Assembly (NCBI GenBank): GCA_050260395.1 | Contig: JBLNCC010000086.1 | Coordinates: forward strand, 71 to 64,070 | DNA from: Betaproteobacteria bacterium | Lineage (GTDB): Bacteria > Bacillota > SHA-98 > UBA4971 | Length of the DNA: 64,000 bases | Reading direction: 5' to 3' | Shown: in pieces, positions 40,901-57,308 of the stretch | Layout: each line of letters opens with the position of its first letter | Numbering within the stretch: the stretch's first letter is position 1 | The notes under the pieces: generated by a model | Told to the model about the DNA's origin: nothing | The model's input: the letters and a program-made list of their open reading frames with translations, nothing else | The model's database searches: none | Made by a program: the position numbers and the translations under genes

Positions 40901-41237
40901 CCCGATGGAGTTCTATCGCGATAGCCTGGCGACAGAAGGGGTGCTCACGGCCGCCGCTGCGAAGAGGATGGATTCCGGCGCGAGCGTGCGAGTTGCTGGA
41001 GTGGTGGTTAGGCCGCATCGCCCCCCAACCCGGAGCGGGAGGGTCGTGGTCTTTTTCTCGCTCGAGGACGAGACGGGCCTCATAGACGTGACTGTGTTCG
41101 AAGGCGTGTACAAGCGCTGCGGGGGCGCGATGTTCACAAGCCCGATCCTTGTAGTGGAGGGACGGGTGGAGCGACGGGGCAACGCTGTGAGCGTTACCTG
41201 CCGCCGCATCCAAAAGGGTCCCTTGTCCTCATACTGA
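37947..41237 (+). CDS. dnaE2: DNA polymerase III alpha subunit, error-prone DnaE2 type
   Basis: PHP domain HLHVHSHFS..TDH..TNDVHY, GRGSAA, PDIDIDF, KLDLL, NNQPMGFY, OB fold RPPTRSG..FFSLEDETG. Ends after the OB fold with no tau-binding tail. Confidence 0.88.
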   Translation: MGKFVHLHVHSHFSFLDGASSVESIVKNAAELGMEAVAITDHDNLCAAARLTRAAQRHGIKPIHGAEVTLEDGSHLVLLAEDPEGYSNICAILTEAYMSRGWERAVAGDGMTPFPGDQAVAEFTKRRLAPKASLSSLEEHHKGIIALSGCFGRGSIPVLVRVGKYSQALELARRLAGIFGRPGFYIELQNLAVPGSDRLISRLVELAEEAGVRVVATNDVHYCKKSEFAVHDVLTCIRTLTRLDDVHPERKFNAENYLKSVDEMTSLFRRYPEAIATAGEVADRCSPGLLLDQKLFPVFALPRGAGTSAECLRHLVYEGASSRYGIINSVIKSRLDHELEVICTLGYEDYFLMVWDVVNFARQKGIRFSGRGSAADSAVAYCLFITSVDPISRGLLFERFLSLERAQKPDIDIDFDARRRDEVRHYLQRKYGPERVATVCTFNTFQARSAVRDVGKAMGFPPEDIDMLAKRLPYICADEIRPAFEKYPELRGSGISIERYSCLFKVCEALAGVPRHIGTHLGGVVASRVPLVRLTPLQMAARGVVITQFDKDDVEEIGLIKLDLLSLRMLAAVDDSVSLSGVDYQHIPLEDSATYEMLNAGETIGAFQLESPAQRALQGRLGASTIEDIVASVALIRPGPVQGNMVEPFVARRRGLEEVTYAHPGLERILKKTYGVVLYQEQVIEIATAIAGFTPGESDRLRKVMTHYRSRAEMDEIGREFVKKAMEHGTSREVAETVLSYIVAYAGYGFCEAHAAAFADTAYKTSYLLRHFPVEFYTAILNNQPMGFYPPNTICVEARRRGIRILPVDINKSAERFTVEDGAIRVGLLRVRGMSEETAARIIARRGPRGYSSVEDFFARVPLDRDLLENLVLCGAFDSLCPNRRAVLWGISRPLQGLERSGDGVPNLAACALPDVATDLAIAGARGDAGAGDCLGVRRTSDAWMWDRRAQSGRSLCELWDIPDFSEVEKFKHEFYILGLHPTKHPMEFYRDSLATEGVLTAAAAKRMDSGASVRVAGVVVRPHRPPTRSGRVVVFFSLEDETGLIDVTVFEGVYKRCGGAMFTSPILVVEGRVERRGNAVSVTCRRIQKGPLSSY

Positions 41238-41274
41238 ACCGCCTGGTCGCCGCAGGTCTCGGCCTGGGCCGATG

Positions 41275-42186
41275 TTAAGCGGCCACGCTATTCTGGTAGT
41301 CGTACACGATTCGCGAGATCTCAGCGATCCTAGCGAAGCCCTGATCGATGTCGGGAACATCCTTCGAGAGCACCACGAGGATGTACGGTCTACTGGCGAA
41401 GACGATGCCGACATCGTTGGCGACGCCGGAAACGTCACCTTCCTTGTGCGCCACCATCACCTGCGGAGGCAGCTTTCCCGGCAAGCCGACGTGGTAGATA
41501 GGGTGCGCCATGTCGTCCAAGAGGCGCGAGCCCAGGTCCGGGTACGACCGGTCGAAGTCGAGCACGCCCTGGACGTACGCTGCCATGTCCTTGGCACATG
41601 TGATATTCTGACCGCCTGGGAACACCATCTCCCCGCCGAGTTCCCGCATGAACTCCGCGATATTGTCCTTTCCGAGGTGCCGGACGAGCATCCGGTAGGC
41701 CACGTTATCGCTTATCGTGATAGCCAGGTTCGCCAATGTCCGAAGGGAATAACTATCCCCGTCTCTCGCCGCGAACTGGAGTATCCCGGCGCCATCCTGG
41801 TAGTCCGTGGCGCTGTTGTACACGACACGGTCGTCCCAGCTCGCCTTGCCCTCCGCAACAAGACGGTTCAGGTAGAGCACAGCGGGGACTTTCACGGTGC
41901 TTGCCGCGGTGATGGGCTCGTATTCATTGATTCCGAAGCTCATCCCAGTCTTGAGGTCGCGGAAATACACGCCGTATGTGGCGGGCTGCGACTTTATATA
42001 AGCCTCGAGCTCGGCCTTGAGTGGCGCGTAGTCTGGTCGCGCCTCGTACGAGCCTGCTTCTCTACCCATACCGTTCCCGGCCGGGATGTCGTGGCGCGTC
42101 GACCCGCCCCAATAGAGCAGCGACCCGGCGCCCAGAAGAGCTATTGCGATAACAAGGCCGAGGGCGCGGTAGACGCGGTTTCTCAT
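41275..42186 (-). CDS. Exported serine hydrolase, class A beta-lactamase-like fold (probable PBP/peptidase)
   Basis: N-terminal TM/signal segment. ASTVK (SxxK), SDN, and HKEG in place of KTG. Confidence 0.8.
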   Translation of the reverse strand: MRNRVYRALGLVIAIALLGAGSLLYWGGSTRHDIPAGNGMGREAGSYEARPDYAPLKAELEAYIKSQPATYGVYFRDLKTGMSFGINEYEPITAASTVKVPAVLYLNRLVAEGKASWDDRVVYNSATDYQDGAGILQFAARDGDSYSLRTLANLAITISDNVAYRMLVRHLGKDNIAEFMRELGGEMVFPGGQNITCAKDMAAYVQGVLDFDRSYPDLGSRLLDDMAHPIYHVGLPGKLPPQVMVAHKEGDVSGVANDVGIVFASRPYILVVLSKDVPDIDQGFARIAEISRIVYDYQNSVAA

Positions 42187-42442
42187 GGCCATCCTCCTTT
42201 CCCTGTGTTTCACCGCTTCATTATAGGACGTACGAGGCAACGCGGCTATGGTAGTTTGTGGTTCATGATGCGAAATCCGCATTTACGCCAGCCTGAGTAG
42301 AAGGAAAACTTCAAATCGCGTGGAACAAAGACTCACGCCTCGGCCGCAGCGAGGTGCTACGGTAGAAAGCGCGGGAGCGCAAGAATGCCTGGTGAGATCG
42401 GGGGTTTAGGTGCGTTCGGCCCGGCAACTTTGCCCTGATCCG

Positions 42443-42469
42443 GAAGGAATCCACATGGTCGAGGCGAAT
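42443..42469 (+). promoter_or_regulatory. SigH-type promoter upstream of the ABC operon
   Basis: GAAGGAATC-N11-GGCGAAT. Confidence 0.55.
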
Positions 42470-42697: not shown

Positions 42698-44578
42698 ATG
42701 AGAAGATTCTGGAAGGGAATCCTTGCCGGGTTGCTTTTCGTGTTCCTTGTTGCTGGAGTTGCTTCGACTGGGTTCGCGGGGCAGGGGAAACTATACGAAA
42801 TGGCCATTTTCGCGGATCCTACCACGATAAACCTGTATTCATCCCTGGGCCCGAGTTCGACGGTGTGGAACACGTTCGTTTCCAACAGCCAGTACTACAC
42901 GTCCCTTTACGGGAACGCCGCTCCCACCTGGGCGTTCGTGCCGGCCGCAGCGGCCGACATGCCGAGCCCACTGAAACAGGAGACCATCGGCGGAAAGACC
43001 TACTACACGTCCATCGTCAAGATGCGCAAAGACATCAAGTGGAGCGACAATACCCCGCTTACCGCCGATGACGTCGTGTTCAGCTACAACGCCGTCCTCC
43101 AGATGGATCCCAACAAGCTCGGTGGGAACTGGCCGAGCATCGTGGACCCGACCGTTCTTGAGCGCGTAGAGAAGGTCGATGACTACACGGTGAAGTTCAT
43201 CCTGAAGGATAAACCTGGGTTGTCCCAGTGGCAATATGGATTGCTCCAGAACTACATCGTTAACAAGAAGTACTGGGAACCCGTGTTCGAGAACGCGAAA
43301 AAGGCGGCTGATCCAGTCAAGGAGCTTTTTGCCCACGAGCCTGAGAAGCAGCCCACAGCTGGTCCGTGGAAGTTCGGACATTGGGAGAAGGGCGCATTTT
43401 GGCAGAACGTGCCTAACCCTGTGTACAGTGGCAAAGGTGAGGTCACCACATTCTACGAGAACGGCGTAGTGACCATCGAGAACCCGAGAACCGGGTTCAA
43501 GTGGCAGAGTGGCAAGCCCGAGGGCAAGGTCGAGCTCAAGCTCACCGATGGTCCGGACGCGACAGGCACGTTGTACCGGATATTCCAGAACCAGAGCGCG
43601 GCCGTGCTCTCGCTGACGAGTGGGCAGGTCGATTTCGTGCTGAACTCCCTGGGCTTGCAGCGCGGTTTCCAGGAGCAGCTGAAGAAGGCGCCCAATGTCC
43701 AGCTCATTGAGAACAGCGTGAACGGCTTCCGGTTCATGGCTTTCAACCTGCGGAAGTACCCCTTCAACATTAAGGAGTTCCGTCAGGCGGTCGCCACCCT
43801 TATCGACCGGGAGTACATCTGCGAGAAGGTACTACAGGGTATAGCCTTCCCGCAGTACTCGGTCGTGCCTCCCGGAAACGCATACTGGTACAACAAAGAC
43901 GTTCCTCAGTGGGGCAAGGGGCTCACTCGCTCCCAGAAGATAGCGGAAGCCGTGAAGCTCCTCAAGAAAGCCGGATTCAAGTGGGAAGTCGAGCCTGAGG
44001 TGGACGTCGAGAAGGACAAGGTGCTGAAACGCGGTAAGGGGCTCATCATGCCGGACGGCAAGAAGATGCCCGAATTCGAGTTCATGATCATGACCGCCGG
44101 GTACGATCCTCTCCGCTACACGTTCGGTTTGAACATCGCATCCTGGCTCAAAGAGGTCGGCATCCCGATTGAAGCCGTGCCCACTGACTTCAACGTGGTC
44201 AGCTCGAAGGTATTCGACGAGCAGGACTTCGACGCCTTCATGATGGGCTGGAGCTTGACCCTGTATCCGGACCACATGAAGTATTTCTTCCACAGCGAAC
44301 AGGCAGGGCTCGGCGGCTTCAACGCCGAGGGCTACAGCAACCCAGAGTTCGACAAGCTGGCGGACGACTTCGTGAAGGAGTCCGATATGGAGAAGGCCCG
44401 CGAGAAGGCGTTCAAGCTACAGGAGATCCTCGCCGATGAGCTGCCTTACATCGTGCTCTTCGACACCCCGATGCTCGAAGCGTACAGGTCTGACCGCGTC
44501 CAGTACCCCTACACAAAGGTGCTGAGCGGCTTGCAGTACGTCGGGGCGCTCACGAGCACGGTCAAGATGCTCGACTGA
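42698..44578 (+). CDS. ABC transporter substrate-binding protein (family 5, Opp/Dpp type)
   Basis: Signal peptide. KWSDNTPLTADDVVFS, KVDDYTVKF, FRQAVATLIDR, YSNPEFDKL, LADELPYI. Confidence 0.92.
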   Translation: MRRFWKGILAGLLFVFLVAGVASTGFAGQGKLYEMAIFADPTTINLYSSLGPSSTVWNTFVSNSQYYTSLYGNAAPTWAFVPAAAADMPSPLKQETIGGKTYYTSIVKMRKDIKWSDNTPLTADDVVFSYNAVLQMDPNKLGGNWPSIVDPTVLERVEKVDDYTVKFILKDKPGLSQWQYGLLQNYIVNKKYWEPVFENAKKAADPVKELFAHEPEKQPTAGPWKFGHWEKGAFWQNVPNPVYSGKGEVTTFYENGVVTIENPRTGFKWQSGKPEGKVELKLTDGPDATGTLYRIFQNQSAAVLSLTSGQVDFVLNSLGLQRGFQEQLKKAPNVQLIENSVNGFRFMAFNLRKYPFNIKEFRQAVATLIDREYICEKVLQGIAFPQYSVVPPGNAYWYNKDVPQWGKGLTRSQKIAEAVKLLKKAGFKWEVEPEVDVEKDKVLKRGKGLIMPDGKKMPEFEFMIMTAGYDPLRYTFGLNIASWLKEVGIPIEAVPTDFNVVSSKVFDEQDFDAFMMGWSLTLYPDHMKYFFHSEQAGLGGFNAEGYSNPEFDKLADDFVKESDMEKAREKAFKLQEILADELPYIVLFDTPMLEAYRSDRVQYPYTKVLSGLQYVGALTSTVKMLD

Positions 44579-44625
44579 CGGCGGGAAGCCGCATCCCGGG
44601 CGCGAGTCGAGCCGCGGCCTTTCAC

Positions 44626-44655
44626 GAGCGGGCCTGGGGTGCCCCAGGCCCGCTC
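44626..44655 (+). other. Intercistronic GC-rich hairpin after the SBP gene (mRNA stabiliser/attenuator)
   Basis: GAGCGGGCCTGGGG / CCCCAGGCCCGCTC inverted repeat. Confidence 0.55.
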
Positions 44656-44719
44656 CGGTTTATGGGGCCTTTTGCGAAAGGCCGCGTTTAACCGGGGCAA
44701 ATCTGGCGAAGATTGAGGG

Positions 44720-45904
44720 ATGGAAATGCGCCGATACATTTTGAGCAGGCTGGGACAGGTCGTCCTGACGCTTCTGATATACATCACCCTGGTCTATTTC
44801 CTGCTTCAGGCCATGCCGGGCGACATCACCCAGATGTACCTGGCAAATCCCAAAATCCCGCAGGCGGCCAGGGAGGAGCTGAAGAAGCAGCTTGGGCTCG
44901 ACCAGGGGGTGTTGATGCAGTATCTGACTTACCTGAAGAACTTTTTCCGGGGAGAGCTCGGGGTGTCATTCTCGCAGTACCCGCGGCCGGTGTGGGATAT
45001 CTTGATGGAGCGATTGCCCAGGACCTTCGTGCTCTTCCTCACCGCGAACGTCCTCTCTTTCTACGTTGGTTACCTAATGGGACGGGTCATCGCTTGGCGC
45101 CGCGGCAAGGTCGTGGACTACGCGGCAACGGTCGTCGGCATAACGTTCTGGACTGCGTTCTATCCTCTATTGGCACTGGTCCTCATTTGGATCTTTGCCT
45201 ATACCCTCAAGATCCTTCCGCTCAACCAGTTCATAGAGCCCAAGCTGTGGCAGGGAGCCCCCTTCTCGGTGAACACGGTTTTTGGCTACATGGTGTTCGG
45301 GGGAGGTCTGGTCGCAGTAGGGCTCTTCCTCGTCTTCTACGCCTTCCTGCGCGGTCTCAAACGTACCCGCCGAAATGTCACGCTGGCCTGCCTTTCGGGA
45401 TCAGCGCTCGTCGCGGTGGCTCTTCTCGTTGCGTGGCGCTCAGGGGCGCTCATCTACATCTGGGACATAGCTAACCACATGGTGCTCCCAGTGTGCACGC
45501 TCACGCTCATCAGCTTCGCAGGCACTATGCTCCTCATGCGTGACTCCATGCTCGAGACAGTGCAGGAGGACTATGTGATGGCTGCTCGCGCCAAGGGCCT
45601 TCCCGACAACGTGGTGAGGGATAGGTACGCCGCGCGGACCGCGATGCTGCCTACCGTTACAAGCCTGGTGCTCAGCCTGGCGAGCTCGATGAGCGGCGGT
45701 CTCGTCACAGAGACCATGTTCTCTTGGCCGGGGCTGGGACAGGTGCTGTTCCATTCCGCGCTCGCGAACGACTACCCGCTTGCGACGGGGGCCCTCGCGT
45801 TCACCGGGGTGTTCCTCCTAATAGCGCACTTTGTTGCAGATATTCTCTACGCGGTTCTCGACCCGCGCATTACCTACACGGGGCAGCCCGCGACCGAGGC
45901 TTAG
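44720..45904 (+). CDS. ABC permease (OppB/DppB type)
   Basis: MPGD, LGLDQ, EAA loop DYVMAARAKGL, ETMFSWPGLG, DILYAVLDPRI. Confidence 0.93.
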   Translation: MEMRRYILSRLGQVVLTLLIYITLVYFLLQAMPGDITQMYLANPKIPQAAREELKKQLGLDQGVLMQYLTYLKNFFRGELGVSFSQYPRPVWDILMERLPRTFVLFLTANVLSFYVGYLMGRVIAWRRGKVVDYAATVVGITFWTAFYPLLALVLIWIFAYTLKILPLNQFIEPKLWQGAPFSVNTVFGYMVFGGGLVAVGLFLVFYAFLRGLKRTRRNVTLACLSGSALVAVALLVAWRSGALIYIWDIANHMVLPVCTLTLISFAGTMLLMRDSMLETVQEDYVMAARAKGLPDNVVRDRYAARTAMLPTVTSLVLSLASSMSGGLVTETMFSWPGLGQVLFHSALANDYPLATGALAFTGVFLLIAHFVADILYAVLDPRITYTGQPATEA

Positions 45905-45934
45905 ATTGACGTGTGGCAAGGCAGGTGAGGCAAG

Positions 45935-46897
45935 ATGAGACAGTTGGCACCGAGCCCCCAAGCGGACACCGTGGCCCTCAGGGAACCCCTCTGGAAAATC
46001 AGGTGGAAGCTCACCATGCGCGGGCTTTCGCAGAACTGGGCTGTGTTCCGAGAAAGCCGTATCGGCATGTTCGGGTTAGTCCTCATCGTGCTTTTCGGCG
46101 TGTTCGGCGCGCTGTGGCCGATAATGATAAACACGGTGTGGGATCCCATGATCTACCACCCCGTGGTCGGGTTTGACCCGATGCTCGCCCATCCTTCGCC
46201 GCCCACAAGGGCTCATCTCCTCGGCACCGATCCCATCGGCCGGGATATCCTTGCCCAGCTCATGTTCAGCACAGGCCGGGAGTTCCTTCTGGGCGTGCTT
46301 TCGGCGCTGATCACAGTGGTGATCGGCACTATCGTCGGCACCGTGGCCGCATACTACGGCGGTTTTACTGACACGTTCTTCATGCGGGTAGCCGACATCA
46401 TGATGCTCTTTCCGTTCATACCGCTGCTCGTGGTTGTGGGTTCAATGGTGCGGCTGAGTTTCTTCCCATTCGCCGTGATCCTCGGCGTGTTGGGGGGATT
46501 CGGAGGCATAACGATCATCCTGAAGGCGCAAGCGCTGTCCGTGAAAGTCAGGCCGTACATCGACGCAGCCCGCGTGGCTGGCGGGAGCAGCTTTCACATA
46601 ATCCGGGCGCATATAATACCCAACGTGCTTCCGCTGTCATTTCTGTACATGATGTTCAACGTGACAGCCGCCATCTTGAGCGAAGCGACCCTCTCGTTTT
46701 TCGGTGTTCTGAACATCGACATGAGCTGGGGTATGATGATCCATACCGCTGAAGCCGCCGGTTACCTCTTTGACTTCAGTAGGTACTGGTGGCTGTGGTT
46801 GCCTTCCGGGCTTGCGATCACATTGTTCTGCGCCGCGTTTTACATGGTGGGTAGAGGGCTGGATGAAGTCGTGAACCCGCGGCTGAGAAAGAGGTGA
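45935..46897 (+). CDS. ABC permease (OppC/DppC type)
   Basis: HLLGTDPIGRD, YIDAARVAG, HIIPN, SEATLSF, NPRLR. Confidence 0.93.
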   Translation: MRQLAPSPQADTVALREPLWKIRWKLTMRGLSQNWAVFRESRIGMFGLVLIVLFGVFGALWPIMINTVWDPMIYHPVVGFDPMLAHPSPPTRAHLLGTDPIGRDILAQLMFSTGREFLLGVLSALITVVIGTIVGTVAAYYGGFTDTFFMRVADIMMLFPFIPLLVVVGSMVRLSFFPFAVILGVLGGFGGITIILKAQALSVKVRPYIDAARVAGGSSFHIIRAHIIPNVLPLSFLYMMFNVTAAILSEATLSFFGVLNIDMSWGMMIHTAEAAGYLFDFSRYWWLWLPSGLAITLFCAAFYMVGRGLDEVVNPRLRKR

Positions 46898-46901
46898 TAA
46901 G

Positions 46902-47945
46902 ATGGACCCCCTGCTTGAGTTGGATGATTTCACCATGCACTACAGCACGAAGGCCGGCTGGGTGCAGGCGGTAGACGGCGTAACATTGTCCCTGGCCAAA
47001 GGGCAGGCCCTCGGGCTGGTCGGAGAGTCCGGGTGCGGCAAGACGTCCATCGCCATGTCCATAATGAAACTCCTCCCCTACAACTCGAATGTGGTCAGGG
47101 GCCGGATCCTCTTCGAGGGCCGCGACATTTACTCGATGACCGACGAGGAAGTTCGAAGGATGCGATGGAAAGGCGTCGCCATGATATTCCAAGCCGCGAT
47201 GAACTCCCTCAATCCCGTGTATCGTGTGGGCAATCAAATAGTGGAGGCCATAGTGACTCATGAGCCCGAGACCAGCGAAGAAGAGGCGTGGGCAAGGGTG
47301 GGGTCGTTGTTCGAGCTCGTAGGCATTCCGAAAGAACGCATGTATAACTACCCGCACGAATACAGCGGCGGCATGAAGCAGAGGGCCGTCATCGCCATGG
47401 CCCTCGCGTGCAATCCCAAGCTGATCATCGCCGACGAGCCAACTACTGCGTTGGATGTGATAGTCCAGGACAGAATCCTGCGAGAAATGGACCAGATAAG
47501 GCGCAAAATCAACATGAGCATGATCTACATCTCTCACGACGTTTCCGTCATAGCCGAGGTGAGCGACGTGGTAGCCGTGATGTACGCCGGCAAGCTGGTC
47601 GAACTCGGCCAGGCAGACGATGTGTTCAAGAGGCCGCGGCATCCGTACACCTACGCTCTCATGAGGGCTTACCCCAGCATCCTTGGGGAGAAGCGCGAGC
47701 TGGCCACGATCCCGGGCGAGCCGCCGAACCTCCTCGACCCGCCATCCGGATGCCGTTTCCACCCGCGGTGCGATCGGGCTACCGCCGAATGTTCCGCGGC
47801 AGACCCCGTGTGGCGGGAGATCTATCCGGGGCATTACTGCGCATGTCACAACCCCGTTGAGGCCGACGGCAGATGGTCCGAGGGACTGCGCCTGGGCAAG
47901 GGGACGGATGGGGGTGAGAAGCTTGGCAGTTCCAGCAATGGCTGA
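46902..47945 (+). CDS. ABC ATPase (OppD type)
   Basis: GESGCGKT, YPHEYSGGMKQR, IADEPTTALD, C-terminal GCRFHPRC. Confidence 0.95.
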   Translation: MDPLLELDDFTMHYSTKAGWVQAVDGVTLSLAKGQALGLVGESGCGKTSIAMSIMKLLPYNSNVVRGRILFEGRDIYSMTDEEVRRMRWKGVAMIFQAAMNSLNPVYRVGNQIVEAIVTHEPETSEEEAWARVGSLFELVGIPKERMYNYPHEYSGGMKQRAVIAMALACNPKLIIADEPTTALDVIVQDRILREMDQIRRKINMSMIYISHDVSVIAEVSDVVAVMYAGKLVELGQADDVFKRPRHPYTYALMRAYPSILGEKRELATIPGEPPNLLDPPSGCRFHPRCDRATAECSAADPVWREIYPGHYCACHNPVEADGRWSEGLRLGKGTDGGEKLGSSSNG

Positions 47946-48921
47946 GAAGACCGACCCCATTCTGCGCGTCGAGCACCTATCCAAGCACTATCCTGTGTCG
48001 AGAGGCTTCTTCCAACGGGGGAAGCTGTTCCTCCATGCCGTCGACGATGTGAGCTTCGAGGTGAAGCGGCGCGAGGTGCTTGGGCTGGTTGGGGAATCGG
48101 GGTGCGGAAAGACAACGACGGGCCGAATGATCGCCCGCCTCACGGTTCCCACCTCCGGGCGTATCCTCGTGGAGGATGCCGATGTCTCGAAGATGCAGGG
48201 CGCTGCGACGGTGGAGTTCCGCAGGAAGGTCCAGATGATCTTCCAAGATCCTTATGAGTCGCTGGACCCCAGGATGACCATCTTTGACATCGTTGCGGAA
48301 CCCCTGAATGTGAACGGCATAGGCAGCCTGGAGGAACGAGAGCAACGCGTGGCCGAGATGCTGAGCTTGGTTGGGATCTCGCCTCCGTCGGCGTTCCTCT
48401 TCAGGTTCCCTCACGAGCTGTCGGGCGGGCAACGACAGCGTGTTGCGATCGCGAGGGCGCTCGTGATGGATCCTGCTTTCGTGGTGGCCGACGAGCCCAC
48501 GTCGATGCTGGATGTTTCGATTCGCACGGGCGTCATGAAGCTTCTTGCACAGCTTCGCGAGGATCTCGGGATCAGCTACCTTTACATCACCCATGACCTC
48601 GCGGTTGCAAGGTACCTCTGCGACAGGATCGCCGTGATGTACCTGGGGAAAATCGTTGAGATGGCCGGAGCTGAAGAGATCATCAAGGAGCCGCTGCATC
48701 CTTACACCAGGGCTCTCATATCGGCTGTTCCCGTGCCTGACCCAGCGGTGAAGAGGCCCATTCCCACCATCAAGGGGGGAATAAGCAAGCCGATAAACCC
48801 GCCGCGCAGGTGTCGGTTCTACGAAAGGTGCCCTCTGGCGAAAAGCACGTGCGCCGAGCAGGACCACCCAGTTCTGAAAGAGGTGTCAAAGGGCCACTTT
48901 GTCGCTTGCCACGACCTATAG
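47938..48921 (+). CDS. ABC ATPase (OppF type)
   Basis: GESGCGKT, FPHELSGGQRQR, VADEPTSMLD, HFVACH. The start overlaps the oppD stop. Confidence 0.95.
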   Translation: MAEKTDPILRVEHLSKHYPVSRGFFQRGKLFLHAVDDVSFEVKRREVLGLVGESGCGKTTTGRMIARLTVPTSGRILVEDADVSKMQGAATVEFRRKVQMIFQDPYESLDPRMTIFDIVAEPLNVNGIGSLEEREQRVAEMLSLVGISPPSAFLFRFPHELSGGQRQRVAIARALVMDPAFVVADEPTSMLDVSIRTGVMKLLAQLREDLGISYLYITHDLAVARYLCDRIAVMYLGKIVEMAGAEEIIKEPLHPYTRALISAVPVPDPAVKRPIPTIKGGISKPINPPRRCRFYERCPLAKSTCAEQDHPVLKEVSKGHFVACHDL

Positions 48922-49058
48922 GCGTTTGGGCGGTGAATAGACGGTGGAGAGGGGCGAGTCGGCCTGGCTGCGGCGGGATTGGGATATGTGGTGTGCGGTC
49001 GACTTGCTTCCCGAGCGCAGGATACGCGAGCCGCAGGTCTAGAAATGCGAGGTGAGGG

Positions 49059-49625
49059 GTGGTGTCTACCAGGAGGAGTCACGAGGTATGGTCCTGGACG
49101 ACCCTCGCCGTCGCGTCCATCGCGGCCATCCTCCTTCTCGTGGCAACCGAACGTCGGTACTTCGAGTACGCGGGGTGGACGCGCGAGGTACGAGCCTCGC
49201 TCGAGACCGCGAGTCTCAGGCATGAGGGCGAGGCCGTTATGCTGAACGCGGTGATCGCGCTGGAGGCGCCGACGGTGGGGTTCGAGAGCAAGGTGGAGCG
49301 AGTTGAGTTCACTCTGGACCAGGGCGGGAGGCGCCTTGGGTACTTCTTCACGCTTCCGGGCGACATTGTCGTTGTCCCGCCGGCGGATGTTGGCGCTCGC
49401 CCCACGGCAGTCACCCGAATCACTGTGACAAAGGACACCTCACGGGAGCTTGCAGTGAGCGCGCCAGACGCCGGCGAAGAGGCGCGACAAGGGGGCGGAG
49501 GAAACGGCGAAAGCGCCACGGCGCAACTCGCCGGCGATGTCGTGCTGGTTGTCGCTCTTCGGCGGGGAGAGAGATTGGTGCGCGTTCCAGTGGCGGGGGA
49601 GGTGGGGGTGGAAAGTGGCGGGTGA
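49059..49625 (+). CDS. Hypothetical membrane-anchored protein (possible LEA-2-like beta-sandwich)
   Basis: GAGGTGAGGGG RBS. One N-terminal TM segment, then alternating beta-strand patterns (RVEFTLDQGGRRLGYF). Confidence 0.5.
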   Translation: MVSTRRSHEVWSWTTLAVASIAAILLLVATERRYFEYAGWTREVRASLETASLRHEGEAVMLNAVIALEAPTVGFESKVERVEFTLDQGGRRLGYFFTLPGDIVVVPPADVGARPTAVTRITVTKDTSRELAVSAPDAGEEARQGGGGNGESATAQLAGDVVLVVALRRGERLVRVPVAGEVGVESGG

Positions 49626-49644
49626 AGAGACGTGGGGGCGGTGC

Positions 49645-50046
49645 ATGAAAGCCGTGGGGGTTGCCGCACGCGCGGTTATTCTGGGTGGAGCAGGTTCGGT
49701 GTGCCTGGCGTTGCTTCAGCTCGGGGACTTCACCCCTCTGCCTTCCGGGTGGAGTCTCGCCATCCCGGTGCTGGGCGGAGTGGCGTTGGGCCTCGCCGAA
49801 ATGAGCGTGCACGAGCTCGTGGGGTGCGTGGCGTTTCTCGTCGTGATGGCCCCAGCGCTGGCGCCCGTTATCGTCGCCTTTCCCACATCGGAGCTTGAAA
49901 GGAGCGGTGTCGTGCGTGCCGCGCTTCGAAACTCGTTGGCGGCCGACGCCCTGCTTCTCCCGTGCGTCCTGGCGGGAATCGTGCTCGGCAGGTGGGTCGC
50001 GGACATGATCGCCTCGCGCCCCCGATCCATGCGTCATAGAAGATAA
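49645..50046 (+). CDS. Hypothetical small integral membrane protein (~4 TM)
   Basis: ATG after a GGGGG RBS. 133 aa, strongly hydrophobic, co-oriented within the cluster. Confidence 0.5.
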   Translation: MKAVGVAARAVILGGAGSVCLALLQLGDFTPLPSGWSLAIPVLGGVALGLAEMSVHELVGCVAFLVVMAPALAPVIVAFPTSELERSGVVRAALRNSLAADALLLPCVLAGIVLGRWVADMIASRPRSMRHRR

Positions 50047-50081
50047 CGGGCGTGCTAGCTTGTTCTCTCGGGGGGATCGAC

Positions 50082-51446
50082 GTGGAAGGTTACGTTGACG
50101 ACAAGCATGAACGAAGGGCACAGGAGCATTCAGAGTTGCGGGCCACCTGCACCGACGAAAGGACCGCCGGGACCCTCATCGGTGCCAAACCCCAGGCGTC
50201 CATCGTCGAGGATTTCGCGCGGTACGTGTCCCCAGGGAGAGTGGAGGTGTATCGATCCCTCGGCTTCGACGCGGTTCCGGGCAAACGTGAGGGGGTGTAC
50301 GTCTGGGACCTCTCCGGCAGACGGTACATAAACTGCCGGTCCAGCGGCGGTGTGTTCAACCTCGGGCACCGGCCCCCTGCCGTCGTGAATGCGCTCAAGG
50401 CCGCACTCGATGTGCTCGACATCGGCGACCACATGCTTCTCAGCGAACACCGGGCCAGGCTGGCTGCCAGGCTTGCTGAGCTCACGCCGGGCGACATAAC
50501 GTACAGCTTTTTCACCCCTAGCGGCGGCGAGGCGTGCGACGTCGCCATCAAGCTGGCGAGGGGCTACACCGGGCGTGCCGGAATCGTCTCTGCGGTCGAC
50601 GGTTACCACGGTCACACCGGGTTTGCGCTTTCGGCGGGGGACGCTCGTTTCAAGAGGCACTTCGAGCCGCTTATGCCGGGGTTCACCCAGGTGCCTTTCG
50701 GGGACATCGACGCGGTGGAGCGCGCTGTCGACGAGACCACGGCCGCGGTGATATTCGAGACCATCCCCGCCACCGCCGGGATCGTCATCCCGCCCGACGA
50801 TTTCTATCCCGCGGTGAGGGAGATCTGCGACAGCAAGGGAGCCCTGCTGATCCTCGACGAGGTCCAAGCTGGGCTTGGCAGGACAGGTCGCCTTTGGGCG
50901 ATCGATGAGTGGGGTGTGGTCCCAGACATCCTGGTTCTGGGCAAAGGGATGAGCGGCGGAATCTACCCGCTTTCCGCAGTGTGCTATAGGGAGCACGTTG
51001 ACGAGTTCTTCAAGCGGAACCCGTTCGTGCATTTGACCTCTTTCGGTGGCGCCGACCTTGGGTGCGTGTGCGCCCTGGCGATGCTCGACGAGATCTGCCG
51101 GCCGGGGTTCCTGGACCACGTGGAAGAGATGGGTGTGCGTTTCGAGCGAGGCTTTGCGCGGCTGAAGGAGAAACACCGGGAGACGGTAGCAGGCTGGAGA
51201 CGGCGCGGCCTGATGATGGCTTTCGAGCTTGCCGACGACACGCTTGGCCCCATGATGACTTACGCCCTCGGCAAGAACGGCGTGATCGCCGTGTTCTCGG
51301 ATTTTCGACCGAGGGCGATGCAGATAATGCCGCCTCTCATCATACAGCCGCCCGAGGTTGACGAGGTGCTTGAGGCGATGGACCAGGCGCTCGACCTCGT
51401 GGAGAGCATGGTTGCCGCAGGGGCCCCAGCTCCTTACATTCCCTGA
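50082..51446 (+). CDS. Class III PLP-dependent aminotransferase (putrescine/ornithine aminotransferase-like)
   Basis: FNLGH, SGGEACDVAIKLAR, GYHGHT, LILDEVQAGLGRTG, PDILVLGKGMSGG (PLP lysine), TSFGG. Confidence 0.9.
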   Translation: MEGYVDDKHERRAQEHSELRATCTDERTAGTLIGAKPQASIVEDFARYVSPGRVEVYRSLGFDAVPGKREGVYVWDLSGRRYINCRSSGGVFNLGHRPPAVVNALKAALDVLDIGDHMLLSEHRARLAARLAELTPGDITYSFFTPSGGEACDVAIKLARGYTGRAGIVSAVDGYHGHTGFALSAGDARFKRHFEPLMPGFTQVPFGDIDAVERAVDETTAAVIFETIPATAGIVIPPDDFYPAVREICDSKGALLILDEVQAGLGRTGRLWAIDEWGVVPDILVLGKGMSGGIYPLSAVCYREHVDEFFKRNPFVHLTSFGGADLGCVCALAMLDEICRPGFLDHVEEMGVRFERGFARLKEKHRETVAGWRRRGLMMAFELADDTLGPMMTYALGKNGVIAVFSDFRPRAMQIMPPLIIQPPEVDEVLEAMDQALDLVESMVAAGAPAPYIP

Positions 51447-51499
51447 AAACGACCGGAGAAAGCCATATCACAGGTCGGCGCAGTGGAGGGACCACCCAA

Positions 51500-54319
51500 G
51501 TGGAGCCGTATGTTTTGAGGCTTGAACAGATCGGACCGGAACACGACGCTTTCGTGGGCGGCAAGGCACGTAACCTTGCGAGGTTGCTGCGTGCCGGGTT
51601 GCCGGTGCCCCGGGGGTTCGTTATCACGACAGCGGCCTATCTTCGGTGTGCAGCTGGGGGACAAGGCAGCGGGCCTGGGGCGACGGCGGAGGTGGGAACG
51701 GCCACCTGCGACTTGCGTGCGCCCTGCCGGGACGGCACGACTGGCGCCGTCTGGGACGAGGTTCGCGAGGCCTACGATGAGCTTCTCCGCGTTCACCCGG
51801 GTGCGTCGTGCGCTGTGCGGTCCTCGGCCAACGTGGAAGATGAGGTCGGAGCGTCGCACGCGGGGCAGTACGACACGGTGCTCGGGGTCCGAAACTGGGA
51901 TGAGCTGGTCGAGGCCGTTCTGACTTGCTGGGGGTCGCTGAACGGGGAGAGGACGCGCGCGTACTTGCCGCATCGGGAGACGCGACACCGCCGAGGCCGC
52001 GTGGAACAAGCTATGGCAGTGGTCGTGCAGCGCGAGGTGCCAGCGGAGGTGAGCGGAGTTCTCTTCACCCTCAACCCGCAATCCGGCAGGGAGAACGAGA
52101 CGTTGGTGGAGGCCACCTGGGGACTGGGCGAAGCGCTCGTGGCTGGGATAGCCACGCCCGACAGGTTCGTGGTGGACACTTGGGAAGAGAGAGTCGTTGA
52201 GGCGCGGGTGAGCGAGAAGAAGGTCATGGTGACGTCCGGCGGGGGGGCGCCGGTGCCGGTGCCCGAGGACATGCGCGCCTGTCGCACGCTGGACGATGCC
52301 GCTCTTCTGTGCCTTGCGCATCTGGGAGAAAGGATTCAGGAGGAGTACGGACTGCCACAGGATGTGGAATGGGCGATGTCCGGAAAAGAGGTCTTCATTC
52401 TCCAGGCGCGTCCGATGACGGCCTTTTCGTTCGCGCCCGATTTCGGCGAGTGGACGTCGGCGAATTTCAGGGAGGTGATGCCGGGGTTCGCGTCGTATTT
52501 GAGCCAATCCCTGTCGTTCCACCACGATTTCGCCCGGGCCACCGAGGAGGTCTTCAAGCGCACGAGACTGTACCGCCGGGACGACGCGGGCACCACATGG
52601 GCGGCCACGTTCTTCGGACACGGCTACTGGAACGTAGGCGCGACCAAGCGGGTGGCCGCGCGGGTCCCGGGTTTCAAGGAGCGTGCCTTCGACCGGACCG
52701 TCGGGATCGTGCCGTCATATGAAGGGAACGGGACCGTGACCCCGTGGACCATGAGGACGGTGCTCAGCGCGCTGCCGTCGCTCTTCGCTTTGAAGAAGCA
52801 TTACCGGCTCGCGGTTGAGGAAGCCAGGCGGTTCATCTCGTGGTTCGAGGCGAACGAGCCCGGGTGGGACGCGATCGCGCCGGAAGGACTCAACGATGCA
52901 GAGCTCAAGTCGTGGGCCAGGTTTGCTGTCGACCTCCATTGGCAGGCAAACCGCTGGGCCCTGATTATCTCCCTCCTCGGGACGCAGGCCCAGGACGATT
53001 TCCATGCCACGGTGGAGAGACTTAACAAGCACGGGCAGAAGGCGGGGAAGGCCATATCCGAGGCTCGTCTCCTGACGGGCATCTCTCAGATGGCCACGGC
53101 GAGGCCGCTCGCCGCCATCTGGGAGCTTGCCAGCTTCGCGCAGGGGAGGCCCCAAGTGGCGGACGTCCTGAAGGCCGCTTCGCCCCGCGCTCTCTCGGAG
53201 ATGTTCGTCAACTGGCAGAATCAGACCGCGAGCGAGCCGCCCGACGCAAAGCGGGAATCGCCAGACCTGGATGAATTCTGGAAGCTGTTCGCCGCGTGCA
53301 TCTCGGAATTCCGCTACATGTCCGAGATCGACGAGGACCTAGCCGTTCCGCGGTGGTCCGAGGATACGGCGTTGCCCCTCTCGATGGTGCAAGCATGTCT
53401 GTCCGGGGAGGTCGGGGAAGATCCGCGCCTCCAGATAGCCCGGCAGGAGGAAGTGCGCAGACGGGAGGAAGAAGCCGCAGCTGCTATCCTGAGATCGCCG
53501 GGCCGGGTCGCGTGGCTCATGGGGCTTGTTCGGGTCCGTGCTTTCCGGGCCCAACTAGACCTTGTGAGGCACCTTGCGTGGTGGCGCGAGGAGACCCGGG
53601 TGTACCTCAGTCGCGCTAGGTACCATACGAGGCGGTTCCTTAAGGAGCAGGGGAAGCGTTGGGCTTCATGCGGGGCTCTCGACGCGGCCGATGATGTTTT
53701 CTGGATGTCCCGGGACGAGGTCCTCGGCCTGCTTGAAGGGTCTTGTGATTTCGAGAGAGTGCGGAAGGCTGTCAGGAAAAGACGACGCGTTCCCGTGGCT
53801 TACAGGAACTTCACCCCACCACCCGTGATCCAGCCTGGCCCCGTCCGCGTCCTCACTAGGCGTTCGCTGGCTTCACGCGCGCGAGGCATGGAGGACGGGA
53901 CCGAAGACACCGTGGCGATGGCGTACCCAAACCGTCAAAACGCGAAGATCGAGAAGACGACGGAAGGGGAGAGCGCACGCGAGGTGCACACTGGCGTGGG
54001 TTGCTCGGCAGGGGTGGCTCGCGGCCTGGCCAGAGTGATACGCTCCCTGGACGAAGCGGCCACTCTCCGAAGAGGCGAGATCCTGGTGGCACCCTTCGCG
54101 AACCCGGGTTGGATGCCTCTCTTCAACGTCGCGTCCGCCGTCGTGCTGGAAGAGGGAGGCCTGCTATCCCATAGCGCTGTGGTCGCCAGGGAGTATGGGA
54201 TTCCGGCGGTGCTTCAGGTGGAAGGGGCCACCACCAGGCTGCGCACCGGGGACCTCATAGTTGTCGACGGCGGGCGGGGCGTGGTTGAGGTGCTCAGCAG
54301 GGGTCACCAGGAGAGCTAG
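51500..54319 (+). CDS. PEP-synthase/PPDK-superfamily dikinase with rifampin phosphotransferase-like domain order
   Basis: N-terminal ATP-grasp (VGGKA, AVRSSANVED, SHAGQYDT, WGLGEALV, QDVEW, LQARP), large central helical domain, C-terminal swivel domain GGLLSHSAVVAREYGIPAV. No pyruvate-binding barrel. Confidence 0.85.
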   Translation: MEPYVLRLEQIGPEHDAFVGGKARNLARLLRAGLPVPRGFVITTAAYLRCAAGGQGSGPGATAEVGTATCDLRAPCRDGTTGAVWDEVREAYDELLRVHPGASCAVRSSANVEDEVGASHAGQYDTVLGVRNWDELVEAVLTCWGSLNGERTRAYLPHRETRHRRGRVEQAMAVVVQREVPAEVSGVLFTLNPQSGRENETLVEATWGLGEALVAGIATPDRFVVDTWEERVVEARVSEKKVMVTSGGGAPVPVPEDMRACRTLDDAALLCLAHLGERIQEEYGLPQDVEWAMSGKEVFILQARPMTAFSFAPDFGEWTSANFREVMPGFASYLSQSLSFHHDFARATEEVFKRTRLYRRDDAGTTWAATFFGHGYWNVGATKRVAARVPGFKERAFDRTVGIVPSYEGNGTVTPWTMRTVLSALPSLFALKKHYRLAVEEARRFISWFEANEPGWDAIAPEGLNDAELKSWARFAVDLHWQANRWALIISLLGTQAQDDFHATVERLNKHGQKAGKAISEARLLTGISQMATARPLAAIWELASFAQGRPQVADVLKAASPRALSEMFVNWQNQTASEPPDAKRESPDLDEFWKLFAACISEFRYMSEIDEDLAVPRWSEDTALPLSMVQACLSGEVGEDPRLQIARQEEVRRREEEAAAAILRSPGRVAWLMGLVRVRAFRAQLDLVRHLAWWREETRVYLSRARYHTRRFLKEQGKRWASCGALDAADDVFWMSRDEVLGLLEGSCDFERVRKAVRKRRRVPVAYRNFTPPPVIQPGPVRVLTRRSLASRARGMEDGTEDTVAMAYPNRQNAKIEKTTEGESAREVHTGVGCSAGVARGLARVIRSLDEAATLRRGEILVAPFANPGWMPLFNVASAVVLEEGGLLSHSAVVAREYGIPAVLQVEGATTRLRTGDLIVVDGGRGVVEVLSRGHQES

Positions 54320-54362: not shown

Positions 54363-55028
54363 CTACGATATCAGACGACGGGCCTCCGAGTCCCTCTCGA
54401 GGCTTTCCAGCCTGTCCTCGAGCTCCTCTATCCTGCGGGTGAGGGCCTCAAGCGCTGTCTGGACAGGGTCCGGGAGGTTCTGGTGATCGAGGTCGATGCC
54501 CTGGATGCGCTTTCCGTACCTCGAGACCACCTTTCCAGGCACACCCACAACCGTGGCGCCGGCCGGCACGGGCCGCAGGACCACAGCCCCGGCGCCGATC
54601 TTCGCCTCATCGCCCACTTCGAACGATCCCAGTACCTTCGCTCCTGCCGCTATGACCACGCGGTTTCCTATGGTCGGGTGGCGCTTGCCTTTCTCCTTGC
54701 CGGTTCCACCCAGAGTCACTCCCTGGTAGATCGTGACATCGTCGCCGATCTCGGCTGTTTCGCCGATCACCACGCCCATGCCGTGGTCGATGAAAAGACG
54801 GCGTCCGATGCGCGCTCCTGGATGGATTTCTATCCCCGTCAGGAAACGCACGATGTGGGAGATGAGCCGCGCGATGACGAACATCCTCCTCTGGTAGAAG
54901 AAGTGGGCGATTCTGTATCCTACGACGGCATGAAGGCCGGGGTAGCACAGGATGACTTCAAGTACGTTCTTGGCTGCGGGGTCGCGCTCGAACACTACTT
55001 TGATGTCCTCTCGGATGCGGTCGAACAT
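54363..55028 (-). CDS. cysE: Serine O-acetyltransferase
   Basis: [39 protein letters not shown]. Confidence 0.95.
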
Positions 55029-55077
55029 TGAAAGCTCCCTCCAACAACGGCTTCACGGGTCGGTGGTCGCCGGCTGC

Positions 55078-55114
55078 AATACCCTAGTATTTTAGTTGGG
55101 TTTGCTGTATTATA
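55078..55114 (-). promoter_or_regulatory. cysE extended -10 with an adjacent AT-rich dyad (possible CymR/Rrf2 operator)
   Basis: Minus strand TGTTATAAT at 55109-55117. Imperfect dyad AATACCCTAGTATTTTAGTTGGGTTT at 55078-55103. Confidence 0.4.
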
Positions 55115-55228
55115 ACACACGGAAGCGCCCCGCGCCAGGGGATGGGCGGTGGTACAGATGGGCACTGGTACATAGGTGCACATGGACTGGCCGGGCCGGG
55201 CTTTCGATGCACTACTTAGGGAGAGTGA

Positions 55229-56155
55229 GTGAGCGTCGTGGCAAGAATCGCCGATAGCGTGCAGGACGTTGTGGGAAAGACCCCTCTTGTCAGGATCCGT
55301 CGGATCGCGGAGGGACTGCGGGCGGAAATCGCGGCAAAACTGGAGTCCATGAATCCGGGCGGGAGCGTGAAGGATCGGGCTGCCCTCGGGATGCTCGTCG
55401 CAGCTGAGAAAGAGGGTAGGCTCGGCCCGGGGTCTGTGGTTGTGGAGCCAACGAGTGGCAACACGGGGATCGCTCTGGCAATGCTTTGCGCCTCGCGGGG
55501 CTTGCGTCTCATCGTGACCATGCCTGAATCTATGAGTGTTGAGAGGCGCAAGATCCTCGAAGCATACGGCGCCGAGGTCGTGCTCACCCCGGCGCGCGAG
55601 GGAATGGCCGGGGCTGTGCAACGGGCGCTGGAGATCGCGGGCTCCACGCCCGGGGCGTTCATGCCTCAACAGTTCACGAACCCCGCGAATGCTGAGGCGC
55701 ACCGTAGGACAACGGCGAGGGAGATCTGGGAAGATACCGACGGCAAGGTGGACGTGTTCGTGGCGGGCGTGGGCACCGGCGGGACCATCACGGGCGTGGG
55801 GGAAGCCCTCAAGGCCAAGAAGCCCGATATTCGTGTCGTTGCCGTCGAGCCGGAGGAATCCCCCGTGCTGGAGGGCGGGCCCGCCGGAAGCCACGGAATC
55901 CAGGGCATCGGCGCCGGCTTTGTGCCGGACGTGCTCAACGTGGGGGTCATCGACGAAGTCGTCGCCGTGTCGAGTGCAGAGGCGGTCTCGATGGCCCGCA
56001 GGCTTGCAAGGGAGGAGGGCATCCTCGCGGGCATATCATCAGGTGCCGCGCTTGCCGCGGCTGTCCGCGTCGCGCGAAGGCCGGAAAACGAGGGGCGTCT
56101 CCTGGTTGTGGTGTTTCCAGATGGCGGGGAACGGTACCTCTCGACTGGCAGCTGA
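55229..56155 (+). CDS. cysK: Cysteine synthase A
   Basis: [51 protein letters not shown]. Confidence 0.96.
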
Positions 56156-56333
56156 CCCCTGCCGCGCGAAAAAGCACGGGTGGTTGGCGGCGGGCCGGAG
56201 GGACGTGGCTGGTACGCCTCCTGTGTTCTGCGCATAATAGCCGTGGGACGACAACCAGCTGTATCGGGTGCATTCCGGTGCGGCGGTGCGGGCGGGTCCC
56301 AACTCCAGTGCGCAGGATGGGAGGCTGAGGCAG

Positions 56334-57284
56334 GTGGCTGCCAAAAGGAACAGGAGCTTACTTTGGCTCGGGATCGGTCTTCTCGTCGTGGTGCTCGTCG
56401 TGATAGGGGTGTCACGGGCCAGGAGGGCGGTCCTCGCGAAGGAGCCCACCATCAGAGTGTATCTATCCGATCAGAACAGGGTCGAGGCGATGCCCATGGA
56501 AGAATACGTGGCCGCCGTGGTGGCAGGCGAGATGAAGAACTACTGGCCCAGGGAGGCCCTGGCGGCCCAGGCTATCGTCGCGCGCACGTTCGCCCTGAAG
56601 ACGCTCGAGGAGATGCGCGGCAAGGGGCCGATGGGCTCGGACATCCAGGCGGGATTCAAGCAAGCTCAAGAGTTTAAGCCGGAGAACGTAAACGACGCGA
56701 TCAGAGCGGCGGTCCGCGAGACGCGAGGCAAGGTCTTGACCCATGGCGGGGAGCTCATCGACGCGTGGTTCCACTCGAACGCCGGCGGCATCACGGCTCT
56801 CGCCAAGGAGGGTCTCAACCTTCGTGGTCCTGAGCCTCCTTACACGGTCGTAAAGAAGAGCCCTGACATGATGTCGGACGTGCCTGCCGAGGACCGCGTC
56901 TGGTCCGCCACATTCACCACGGCTGAGGTCGAGGCCGCCCTGAACAAGATCGGCATCCCGGTCAACGGAGTAACCGGGATGTCCGTGGCCAAGCGCGGTC
57001 CTTCTGGACGGGCGCAGGCGATAACCATCCACCACTCGGGGGGGGACGTCACTATCGGTGGCAACGACCTCCGCGTGGCCCTCGACCCGATGCGTATGAG
57101 ATCCAACCTCATAACTAGCCTCGAGGTGCGCGACGGCGAGGTCCGTATGAGCGGAAAGGGTTTCGGCCACGGCGTGGGGATGAGCCAATGGGGCGCCTAC
57201 AATATGGCGAAAGCAGGACGGCGCCACGAGGAGATCTGCACTTACTATTTCAATGGCGTGAGGGTGGAGAAACGCTGGGCGTAG
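56334..57284 (+). CDS. SpoIID/LytB domain protein
   Basis: N-terminal TM segment. EEYVAAVVAGEM..EALAAQAIVARTF and GFGHGVGMSQWGA. Confidence 0.9.
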   Translation: MAAKRNRSLLWLGIGLLVVVLVVIGVSRARRAVLAKEPTIRVYLSDQNRVEAMPMEEYVAAVVAGEMKNYWPREALAAQAIVARTFALKTLEEMRGKGPMGSDIQAGFKQAQEFKPENVNDAIRAAVRETRGKVLTHGGELIDAWFHSNAGGITALAKEGLNLRGPEPPYTVVKKSPDMMSDVPAEDRVWSATFTTAEVEAALNKIGIPVNGVTGMSVAKRGPSGRAQAITIHHSGGDVTIGGNDLRVALDPMRMRSNLITSLEVRDGEVRMSGKGFGHGVGMSQWGAYNMAKAGRRHEEICTYYFNGVRVEKRWA

Positions 57285-57308
57285 CCTGACACGAGGAGGG
57301 GTTCTGCG

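Follow-up and report, generated by a model that had tools for sequence, protein, structure and literature searches.

A class III aminotransferase-fold gene and a dikinase gene of rifampin phosphotransferase architecture form a conserved pair downstream of a separate Opp-type importer operon

Gene content of the block

The 64,000-nt stretch of DNA analysed here, hereafter the window (contig JBLNCC010000086.1 of assembly GCA_050260395.1), belongs to a 2.6-Mb Bacillota metagenome-assembled genome (MAG) of 126 contigs that is 85% complete. Between positions 42698 and 54319 it carries nine genes, all on the + strand, which were confirmed by their open reading frames (ORFs) together with Pfam and NCBIfam searches. 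The last two encode an enzyme with the class III aminotransferase fold that depends on pyridoxal phosphate (PLP), designated AT, and a dikinase with the architecture of rifampin phosphotransferase (RPH), designated DK. AT and DK very likely constitute one functional unit, and the Opp-type importer encoded by the first five genes forms an operon of its own, now situated upstream of the conserved module but not part of it. The nine genes are the following.

42698-44578, + strand: binding protein, SBP_bac_5 (Pfam/NCBIfam)
44720-45904, + strand: first permease, BPD_transp_1 (Pfam/NCBIfam)
45935-46897, + strand: second permease, BPD_transp_1 (Pfam/NCBIfam)
46902-47945, + strand: first ATPase, ABC_tran and oligo_HPY (Pfam/NCBIfam)
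47938-48921, + strand: second ATPase, ABC_tran and oligo_HPY (Pfam/NCBIfam)
49059-49625, + strand: mem1, 188 residues, no Pfam or NCBIfam family
49645-50046, + strand: mem2, 133 residues, no Pfam or NCBIfam family
50052-51446, + strand: AT, class III aminotransferase-fold PLP enzyme (Aminotran_3, 278.7 bits)
51500-54319, + strand: DK, 939 residues, RPH-architecture dikinase (PPDK_N at residues 18-308, PEP-utilizers at 857-927, nothing recognised between them)

The intergenic distances are, in order, 141, 30, 4, -8, 137, 19, 5 and 53 bp, in agreement with a first-pass annotation that had described nine co-oriented genes with gaps of at most ca. 140 bp and no clear terminator. The terminator scan was indeed empty in every gap, the 7 sites found in the region (9.7 expected) all falling within genes. 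The same annotation had placed a SigH-like promoter ahead of the block, a claim that was not sustained: a SigH-like pattern matches at 42445-42469, but with 14 occurrences in the window and 11.6 expected this match is no more than chance and carries no weight. No sigma-70 promoter was found by the scan upstream of the first gene (42698). Overall G+C content is 0.57-0.60 in the Opp genes and 0.63-0.65 in AT and DK; G+C content at third codon positions (GC3) is alike in both sets (0.75-0.80), and base composition was for this reason dropped as a mark of separate origin.

Architecture of DK and its relation to known dikinases

In the predicted structure of DK (predicted local distance difference test score, 83.7), an ATP-grasp domain (ca. 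residues 1-310) is followed by an all-helical central domain (ca. 320-770), a disordered linker (782-825) and a His-swivel domain (826-935). Residues K22, R107, E290 and H891 are invariant in an alignment of 16 sequences (A1), with His891 located within the motif GGLLSH. This succession of an ATP-grasp domain, a central domain and a His-swivel domain with its catalytic histidine is that of RPH, and the only whole-chain match retrieved by Foldseek was RPH-Lm (5HV1; E 9.4e-43). The first description of the 939-residue product, as an ATP-grasp domain, a large central domain and a C-terminal phospho-His domain, is thus borne out both by Pfam and by comparison of the DK model with RPH over the whole chain. 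DK and RPH-Lm (PDB 5HV1, 5FBS-5FBU) share the same three domains in the same order and the conserved catalytic histidine (His891 in DK), but they are only 22% identical in the structural alignment. When DK was compared with solved chains by phmmer, two stretches were matched, the best covering residues 1-317 and not including the central domain. The scores of DK against the two RPH equivalog models are 304.6 (NF041857, cut-off 999) and 197.5 (NF000283, cut-off 1700).

Scores against the ligase models RedH (331.6, cut-off 1350) and PigC (307.6, cut-off 1300) likewise lie far below the cut-offs, as does that against the phosphoenolpyruvate (PEP) synthase model TIGR01418 (294.5, cut-off 739.75). 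The TIM-barrel domain PEP-utilizers_C (PF02896) was not found in DK by Pfam; it occurs in the true pyruvate phosphate dikinase (PPDK) of the window, which has all three Pfam domains, including the PEP-binding barrel. DK is therefore neither a PPDK nor a PEP synthase, as had been proposed from its sequence. A separate PPDK had also been noted at 24170; the gene exists, with its coordinates corrected to 24053-26872. A search with the central domain of DK returned 77 matches, down to 25% identity and from MAGs only, and this domain defines a subfamily that is seen only in MAGs.

Members of the wider dikinase family include HpeHI, CreHI and PpsAB, described as small-molecule dikinases that yield AMP via the swivel histidine (PMC12167813), and HpeI (9goj) is among the fold matches of the ATP-grasp domain of DK. 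These systems consist of two proteins, act on phenols and stand at the start of aromatic catabolism, whereas DK is a single chain that is accompanied by a PLP enzyme.

Active site of AT

AT matches PF00202 with 278.7 bits (gathering threshold 30.5), and K298, D269 and Q272 are invariant in alignment A3. Its best NCBIfam model is that of putrescine aminotransferase, and the scores against both models of this enzyme stay below the cut-offs (323.9 vs 612 for NF008570 and 268.7 vs 658.65 for TIGR03372). Among solved chains, the nearest are YgjG (ca. 260 bits), PigE, in sixth place with 215 bits, and chains of the ArgD/OAT type. AT is collinear with its best solved relative, YgjG (PDB 4UOX), over residues 50-455, K298, Q272 and R383 being the equivalents of Lys300, Gln274 and Arg426. 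The AT clade is further defined by the motifs NCRSSGGVFNLGHR, GYHGHTG and ETIPATAG, with the catalytic Lys298 located within VLGKGMSGG; the segments INCRSSGG and FETIPATAG, singled out as unusual on first inspection, are both present and are conserved signatures of the clade. AT orthologs align only from about residue 32-42, and the true start of the gene may lie some 30-40 codons downstream of 50052.

AT departs from YgjG at two positions as well as by its score and by the kinase linkage of its clade. The residue corresponding to Lys183 of YgjG and Arg180 of OAT is His188 in AT, and Thr241 occupies the position of YgjG Glu243, ETIPATxG replacing EPIQGEGG in the whole clade, including the sister group linked to DUF6206 that is described below. 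At the Glu243 position, Thr or Pro is found in 35 of the 36 rows shown, and the outgroup L134 alone keeps Glu (EPVQGEAG). The Glu243-Arg426 pair of YgjG has been described as strictly conserved and tied to the handling of 2-oxoglutarate (PMC4244111). This ion pair of 2-oxoglutarate-dependent class III transaminases is broken in AT, which has kept Arg383 and lost the Glu. In many members Arg383 is flanked by further arginines (RRRGL), and such an unshielded arginine with arginine neighbours would suit a phosphate.

Co-occurrence and adjacency of AT and DK

Orthologs of the genes of the block were searched for in 41 related genomes (genome and locus numbers, G and L, are our own). DK orthologs occur in G000-G009, which are all the sampled genomes of the window's genus and of one sister genus, and DK matches no more than a fragment in the other 31. 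AT orthologs (81-94% identity) occur in exactly the same ten genomes, the other 31 having only paralogs of 32-41% identity.

Further evidence comes from more distant genomes. After alignment of 16 DK relatives (A1), a scan of one genome per species returned 80 loci, 27 of which contain a full-length DK ortholog outside the window's genus (33-50% identity, the match extending over the central domain). Three of these are cut off by a contig end at the start of DK, leaving 24 loci assessable upstream, and in 19 of the 24 an AT gene (51-74% identity) is found directly upstream of DK on the same strand. These linked loci (L033-35, 37-39, 41-45, 47, 49, 50, 55-58 and 66) represent Chloroflexota (Anaerolineae, Ardenticatenia and Chloroflexia) and other Bacillota (a MAG bearing the name Symbiobacterium), together with one MAG labelled Heimdallarchaeota. 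The five unlinked loci (L040, L048, L052, L053 and L054) belong to four genomes, each having an AT ortholog (58-72%) elsewhere, in one of them on the same contig at a distance of 22 kb from DK. No class III aminotransferase match was detected at any of the 51 loci carrying more distant members of the DK family. In an even sample of 151 Chloroflexota genomes, a DK ortholog occurs in two, and an AT of at least 61% identity is present in the same two, adjacent to it.

The 146 flanking ORFs scanned at the linked loci correspond to variable housekeeping genes, the other recurrent neighbours being a few lineage-level ones (Rrf2, FtsK, an S1 protein); these neighbour tables are incomplete, the greedy ORF caller having missed genes in G+C-rich loci such as that for DUF6206 in L135. 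At L037, the AT gene (8760-9951) matches in two pieces (residues 45-356 and 383-455), which may reflect a frameshift or an assembly error. No paper describing an aminotransferase-dikinase pair was found in a literature search that did not extend to subscription journals.

The importer and the two membrane proteins

The first five genes, encoding an SBP_bac_5 binding protein, two BPD_transp_1 permeases and two ABC_tran/oligo_HPY ATPases in one operon, have the composition of an Opp/Dpp-type importer, and none of the specific NCBIfam equivalog cut-offs (OppA, DppA, NikA, GsiB, CntA) was reached. The block had initially been read as a single uptake-transaminate-phosphorylate route in which an amine compound is taken up by Opp, transaminated by AT and phosphorylated or condensed by DK, with the membrane proteins in an auxiliary role. 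Such a nine-gene pathway would account for the co-orientation of genes separated by at most 141 bp with gaps free of terminator-like sites, and the whole block is syntenic in G001, G002, G003, G008 and G009; this synteny, however, is shared to the same extent by dnaE2 and cysE, flanking genes that are unrelated to the block. Also in its favour, a different Opp-type set (30-53% identity), without mem1 and mem2, lies upstream of AT-DK in G004, and a carbohydrate-type ABC importer is found at L037 (Anaerolineales) directly upstream of a dehydrogenase gene followed by AT and DK.

The distribution of the importer genes nevertheless makes a nine-gene pathway unlikely. Orthologs of the binding protein (75-97% identity) occur in G000, G001, G002, G003, G008 and G009 but also, within the sister genus g3, in five genomes with neither AT nor DK (G012, G013, G014, G015 and G017). 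The orthologous five-gene operon of g3 (75-83% identity) stops after the second ATPase gene, with nothing like mem1, mem2, AT or DK downstream of it in the five genomes; at L126, for instance, the next gene is a divergently oriented ORF of 504 residues. Conversely, no ortholog of the binding protein was found at E <= 1e-80 in G004-G007, which are of the window's genus and possess AT-DK, and outside the genus AT-DK has no Opp neighbour at any of the 19 linked loci. Because the Opp operon stands alone in g3 and its binding protein was not found in four genomes with AT-DK, it is regarded as independent, that is, as an ordinary peptide-type importer merely lying upstream of the pair. Neighbourhood analysis thus upheld the first-pass annotation as to the co-conservation of the aminotransferase and dikinase genes and spoke against it as to that of all nine. 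In G005-G007, a contig break occurs ca. 120-280 bp upstream of AT or inside AT (G005:C60, G006:C71 and G007:C43; L029, L027 and L025, respectively), which suggests a repeat or a variable region where other genomes have the Opp and mem genes.

By hydropathy, mem1 has one predicted N-terminal membrane helix and mem2 about four hydrophobic helices; neither has a Pfam family at E <= 1 or any in NCBIfam. Both are probably real genes, since their GC3 (0.746) is like that of their neighbours and their reading frames are conserved across six genomes. These six of the 41 (G000, G001, G002, G003, G008 and G009) are the ones having both Opp and AT-DK, a distribution that a nine-gene pathway would also accommodate, and mem1 and mem2 are lineage-specific.

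Directly between the alternative Opp set and AT-DK of G004 lies a homologue of an ORF that occupies positions 41272-42300 in the window. This ORF of 342 residues has no family, is kept in the genus with 38-90% identity, and is faced by an ORF nearly as long on the opposite strand (41275-42282).

Fusion proteins and a dehydrogenase partner

A representative-protein search with DK gave 5930 matches at E <= 1e-30. Three of the 21 long relatives scanned (P0113, P0118 and P0202) combine a DK-like protein and a class III aminotransferase in one chain, both orders being represented. Two of the three also include a Rossmann domain of the shikimate dehydrogenase type, and one of these fusions has a P-loop kinase-like tail. 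Another relative, P0080, is DK-like with 39% identity over the full length and ends in a GNAT acetyltransferase.

The sole recurring extra partner at the linked loci is a zinc-dependent medium-chain dehydrogenase/reductase (Zn-MDR) gene, found immediately ahead of AT at five of these 19 loci. At L033, L037 and L038 its stop codon and the start codon of AT overlap over 4 bases; the overlap at L044 is 8 bases long. The best models for this product, all below their cut-offs, are threonine 3-dehydrogenase, sorbitol dehydrogenase and scyllo-inosose dehydrogenase.

A sister AT clade linked to DUF6206

AT-like genes of 51-53% identity occur without DK in the sample of 151 Chloroflexota genomes, every one of them beside a DUF6206 gene. 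All five DUF6206 (PF19709) genes of these genomes adjoin an AT of this kind, the fifth AT being cut by a contig end. DUF6206 genes were located as follows.

L138, 2151-3125, - strand: DUF6206 (PF19709)
L136, 5800-6765, - strand: DUF6206 (PF19709)
L140-L144: DUF6206 (PF19709)

In a maximum-likelihood tree, the DUF6206-linked ATs group together with support of 100/100, next to the DK-associated ATs (30 rows, 90/84), and the DK-unlinked row L133 falls outside both clades. The DUF6206 alignment displays a glycine loop followed by a lysine (GYGEIS..AFKR), a catalytic-loop-like motif (DGQISNW) and a DTS motif. The structural model (pLDDT 90) matches only kinases, WaaP being the best of 270 matches at E <= 0.001, and protein kinases and an aminoglycoside phosphotransferase are among the matches listed. 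DUF6206 is therefore predicted from this model to have a protein-kinase-like fold, unrelated to that of DK. This unusual PLP enzyme hence exists in two sister clades, one linked to DK and the other to DUF6206, phosphotransferases whose folds are unrelated. No annotation of DUF6206 was found, nor any paper containing the term, in searches that did not cover subscription journals.

Other genes of the window

Upstream of the block, a probable mutagenesis cassette spans 34194-41237 on the + strand. It comprises an unassigned ORF of 511 residues, a Y-family polymerase protein resembling IMS/ImuB (36026-37480) and a polymerase of the DnaE2 type (37947-41237); with 875 bits, the last falls just short of the cut-off of the error-prone polymerase model (939). 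Downstream, cysE (54363-55028, - strand) faces a PALP-family cysteine-synthase-like gene (55229-56155, + strand), followed by a SpoIID-like gene (56268-57284) and a heavy-metal P-type ATPase gene (57309-59783). The long - strand ORFs at 54995-55894 and 56463-58490 are antisense artefacts.

Proposed function of the AT-DK pair

These data lead us to propose, with a probability of roughly 0.7, that the AT-DK gene pair is a functional unit in which a PLP enzyme and a dikinase act on one amine-bearing hydroxyl or carbonyl metabolite, separately from the Opp importer. Domain anatomy, catalytic residues, co-conservation, fusions and the parallel DUF6206 module are observed; the chemistry, substrate class and order of steps set out here are what we infer from them. 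The ATP-grasp domain of DK would load His891 of the swivel domain with a phosphoryl group, and the swivel would carry it to the helical central domain, where a second substrate would be bound. By analogy with RPH and HpeHI, ATP would be converted to AMP and Pi. AT would act on the amine or the carbonyl of the same metabolite. This metabolite would most likely have both a hydroxyl group and an amine or carbonyl in a non-alpha position, as in an amino alcohol, aminopolyol, aminocyclitol or amino sugar, since the nearest relatives of AT act on terminal amines or aldehydes, the acetyltransferase of P0080 is of the amine type and dehydrogenases are frequent third partners.

Two orders of reaction may be envisaged. 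In the first (a), the kinase would act before AT, which would then perform either a transamination or a phospho-lyase-type elimination of phosphate and ammonia on the phospho-amine. In the second (b), a dehydrogenase would be followed by the transaminase and then by the kinase, the order by which inosamine and kanosamine are formed. Order (a) is slightly preferred because the AT clade has lost the Glu by which the conserved active-site Arg is normally shielded and because the sister clade is constantly associated with a kinase of another, unrelated type. Known pairs made of an amino-alcohol kinase and a phospho-lyase of the class III fold (acting on ethanolamine phosphate or 5-phosphohydroxylysine) resemble the AT-DK pair in that a kinase and a PLP enzyme handle one amino alcohol. 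The kinases of those pairs are of the protein-kinase-like type, whereas a dikinase is involved here, and with no sequence evidence placing AT with the lyases the likeness is a functional analogy only. Eliminations of the ethanolamine-phosphate phospho-lyase type do occur within the class III subgroup (PMC8154272).

Several observations weigh against the proposed function or narrow its basis. The sequences closest to that of AT belong to true transaminases (YgjG, PigE, ArgD and OAT), no phospho-lyase being found among the best 60 of the 92 solved chains that match it, and nothing in the data decides between a transaminase and a lyase or between the two orders. The aminotransferase domains of the fusion proteins are canonical (EPIQGEGG) and 25-29% identical to AT; the fusions back a recurrence of the pairing in the wider family and speak neither for orthology nor for this AT clade in particular. 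The Zn-MDR gene has an ortholog in 7 of 8 g3 genomes without AT-DK, by which the dehydrogenase was ruled out as an obligate third member, and in the window's genus its ortholog lies ca. 45 kb from DK. As for the counts, the co-occurrence in ten genomes concerns near relatives and represents a single event, many of the 19 linked loci are from related Chloroflexota MAGs and are not 19 independent events, and the Chloroflexota search for DK scored five candidates per genome, so that copies may have been missed.

Three further explanations of DK were considered, each less well supported than an AT-DK metabolite module. It is improbable that DK is a condensing enzyme of the PigC/TamQ type, which would phosphorylate a carbonyl partner so that a C-N bond arises on attack by the primary amine that AT produces. 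In favour of this, PigC, RedH and HapC have an RPH-like architecture, the class III aminotransferase PigE belongs to the same pathway and is the sixth-best solved relative of AT, AT and DK match the models of these enzymes, and DK scores about equally against RedH, PigC and RPH. The tambjamine cluster reportedly includes a transaminase-containing enzyme, TamH (PMC9594044). HapC, a PigC homologue, phosphorylates the aldehyde MBC via its swivel histidine before condensation (PMC13534948). All three scores of DK are however far below their cut-offs (1350, 1300 and 999), PigE is a chain of 861 residues with an extra N-terminal domain while AT has a single domain, and the neighbours of AT-DK scanned with Pfam are housekeeping genes, with no bipyrrole pathway or other biosynthetic genes. 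In addition, the sister AT clade pairs with a protein-kinase-like protein, and this fold is not known to take part in PigC-type condensations.

That DK is a kinase inactivating antibiotics or other xenobiotics in the manner of RPH, with AT as a neighbour unrelated to it or to resistance, is considered very unlikely. RPH-Lm is the only solved full-length structural match of DK, and the layout of P0080, a dikinase fused to a GNAT acetyltransferase, is resembled by that of bifunctional aminoglycoside-modifying enzymes. Against this stand the RPH equivalog score (304.6 for a cut-off of 999) and the best phmmer stretch, which ends before the central domain. Pairing with a PLP enzyme across phyla and fusion to one would not be expected of a resistance kinase, and RPH is not known to have an obligate PLP partner. 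Finally, a regulatory phosphorylation of the AT protein itself by DK, for which VadK of mycobacteria, reportedly a PPDK-derived kinase with a regulatory role (PMC13400623), offers a precedent, is the least credible explanation: DK keeps the large helical central domain that binds small molecules in RPH, and nothing in the data points to a protein substrate.

Synthesis of the cobamide linker (aminopropanol phosphate) was considered as a function and rejected for the window's genus, in which CbiB (PF03186) was not found in G000 (85% complete), G002 or G004; control genomes and G045 were matched by the same model. The threonine-phosphate decarboxylase model was below cut-off in all five genomes examined.

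A more specific and rather doubtful extension of the proposed function is that the AT clade is a new type of class III PLP enzyme acting on phosphorylated amines and recruited twice by unrelated kinases, DK and DUF6206. With the dehydrogenase added, there could then be a hitherto undescribed route by which Chloroflexota and some Bacillota deaminate or synthesise amino alcohols or aminopolyols independently of B12; if true, this would give DUF6206 its first function.

Significance

As far as our literature searches reach, the following results are new: the Opp operon is uncoupled from the pair, fusion proteins exist, AT has lost the Glu-Arg switch, and there is a parallel AT-DUF6206 module with a predicted kinase fold for DUF6206. 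The case shows that tight spacing within one genus, here of nine genes, does not amount to a pathway. RPH-type dikinases are a large family (5930 matches at E <= 1e-30) with a handful of known substrates, namely rifamycins, bipyrrole aldehydes and phenols. The PLP partner, the fusions and the parallel module, whose kinase is unrelated, reduce the range of chemistry to compounds with a hydroxyl and an amine and point to two concrete enzyme pairs, AT-DK and AT(B)-DUF6206. A substrate found for them would assign a function to an orphan dikinase clade, to a clade of switch-less aminotransferases and to DUF6206.

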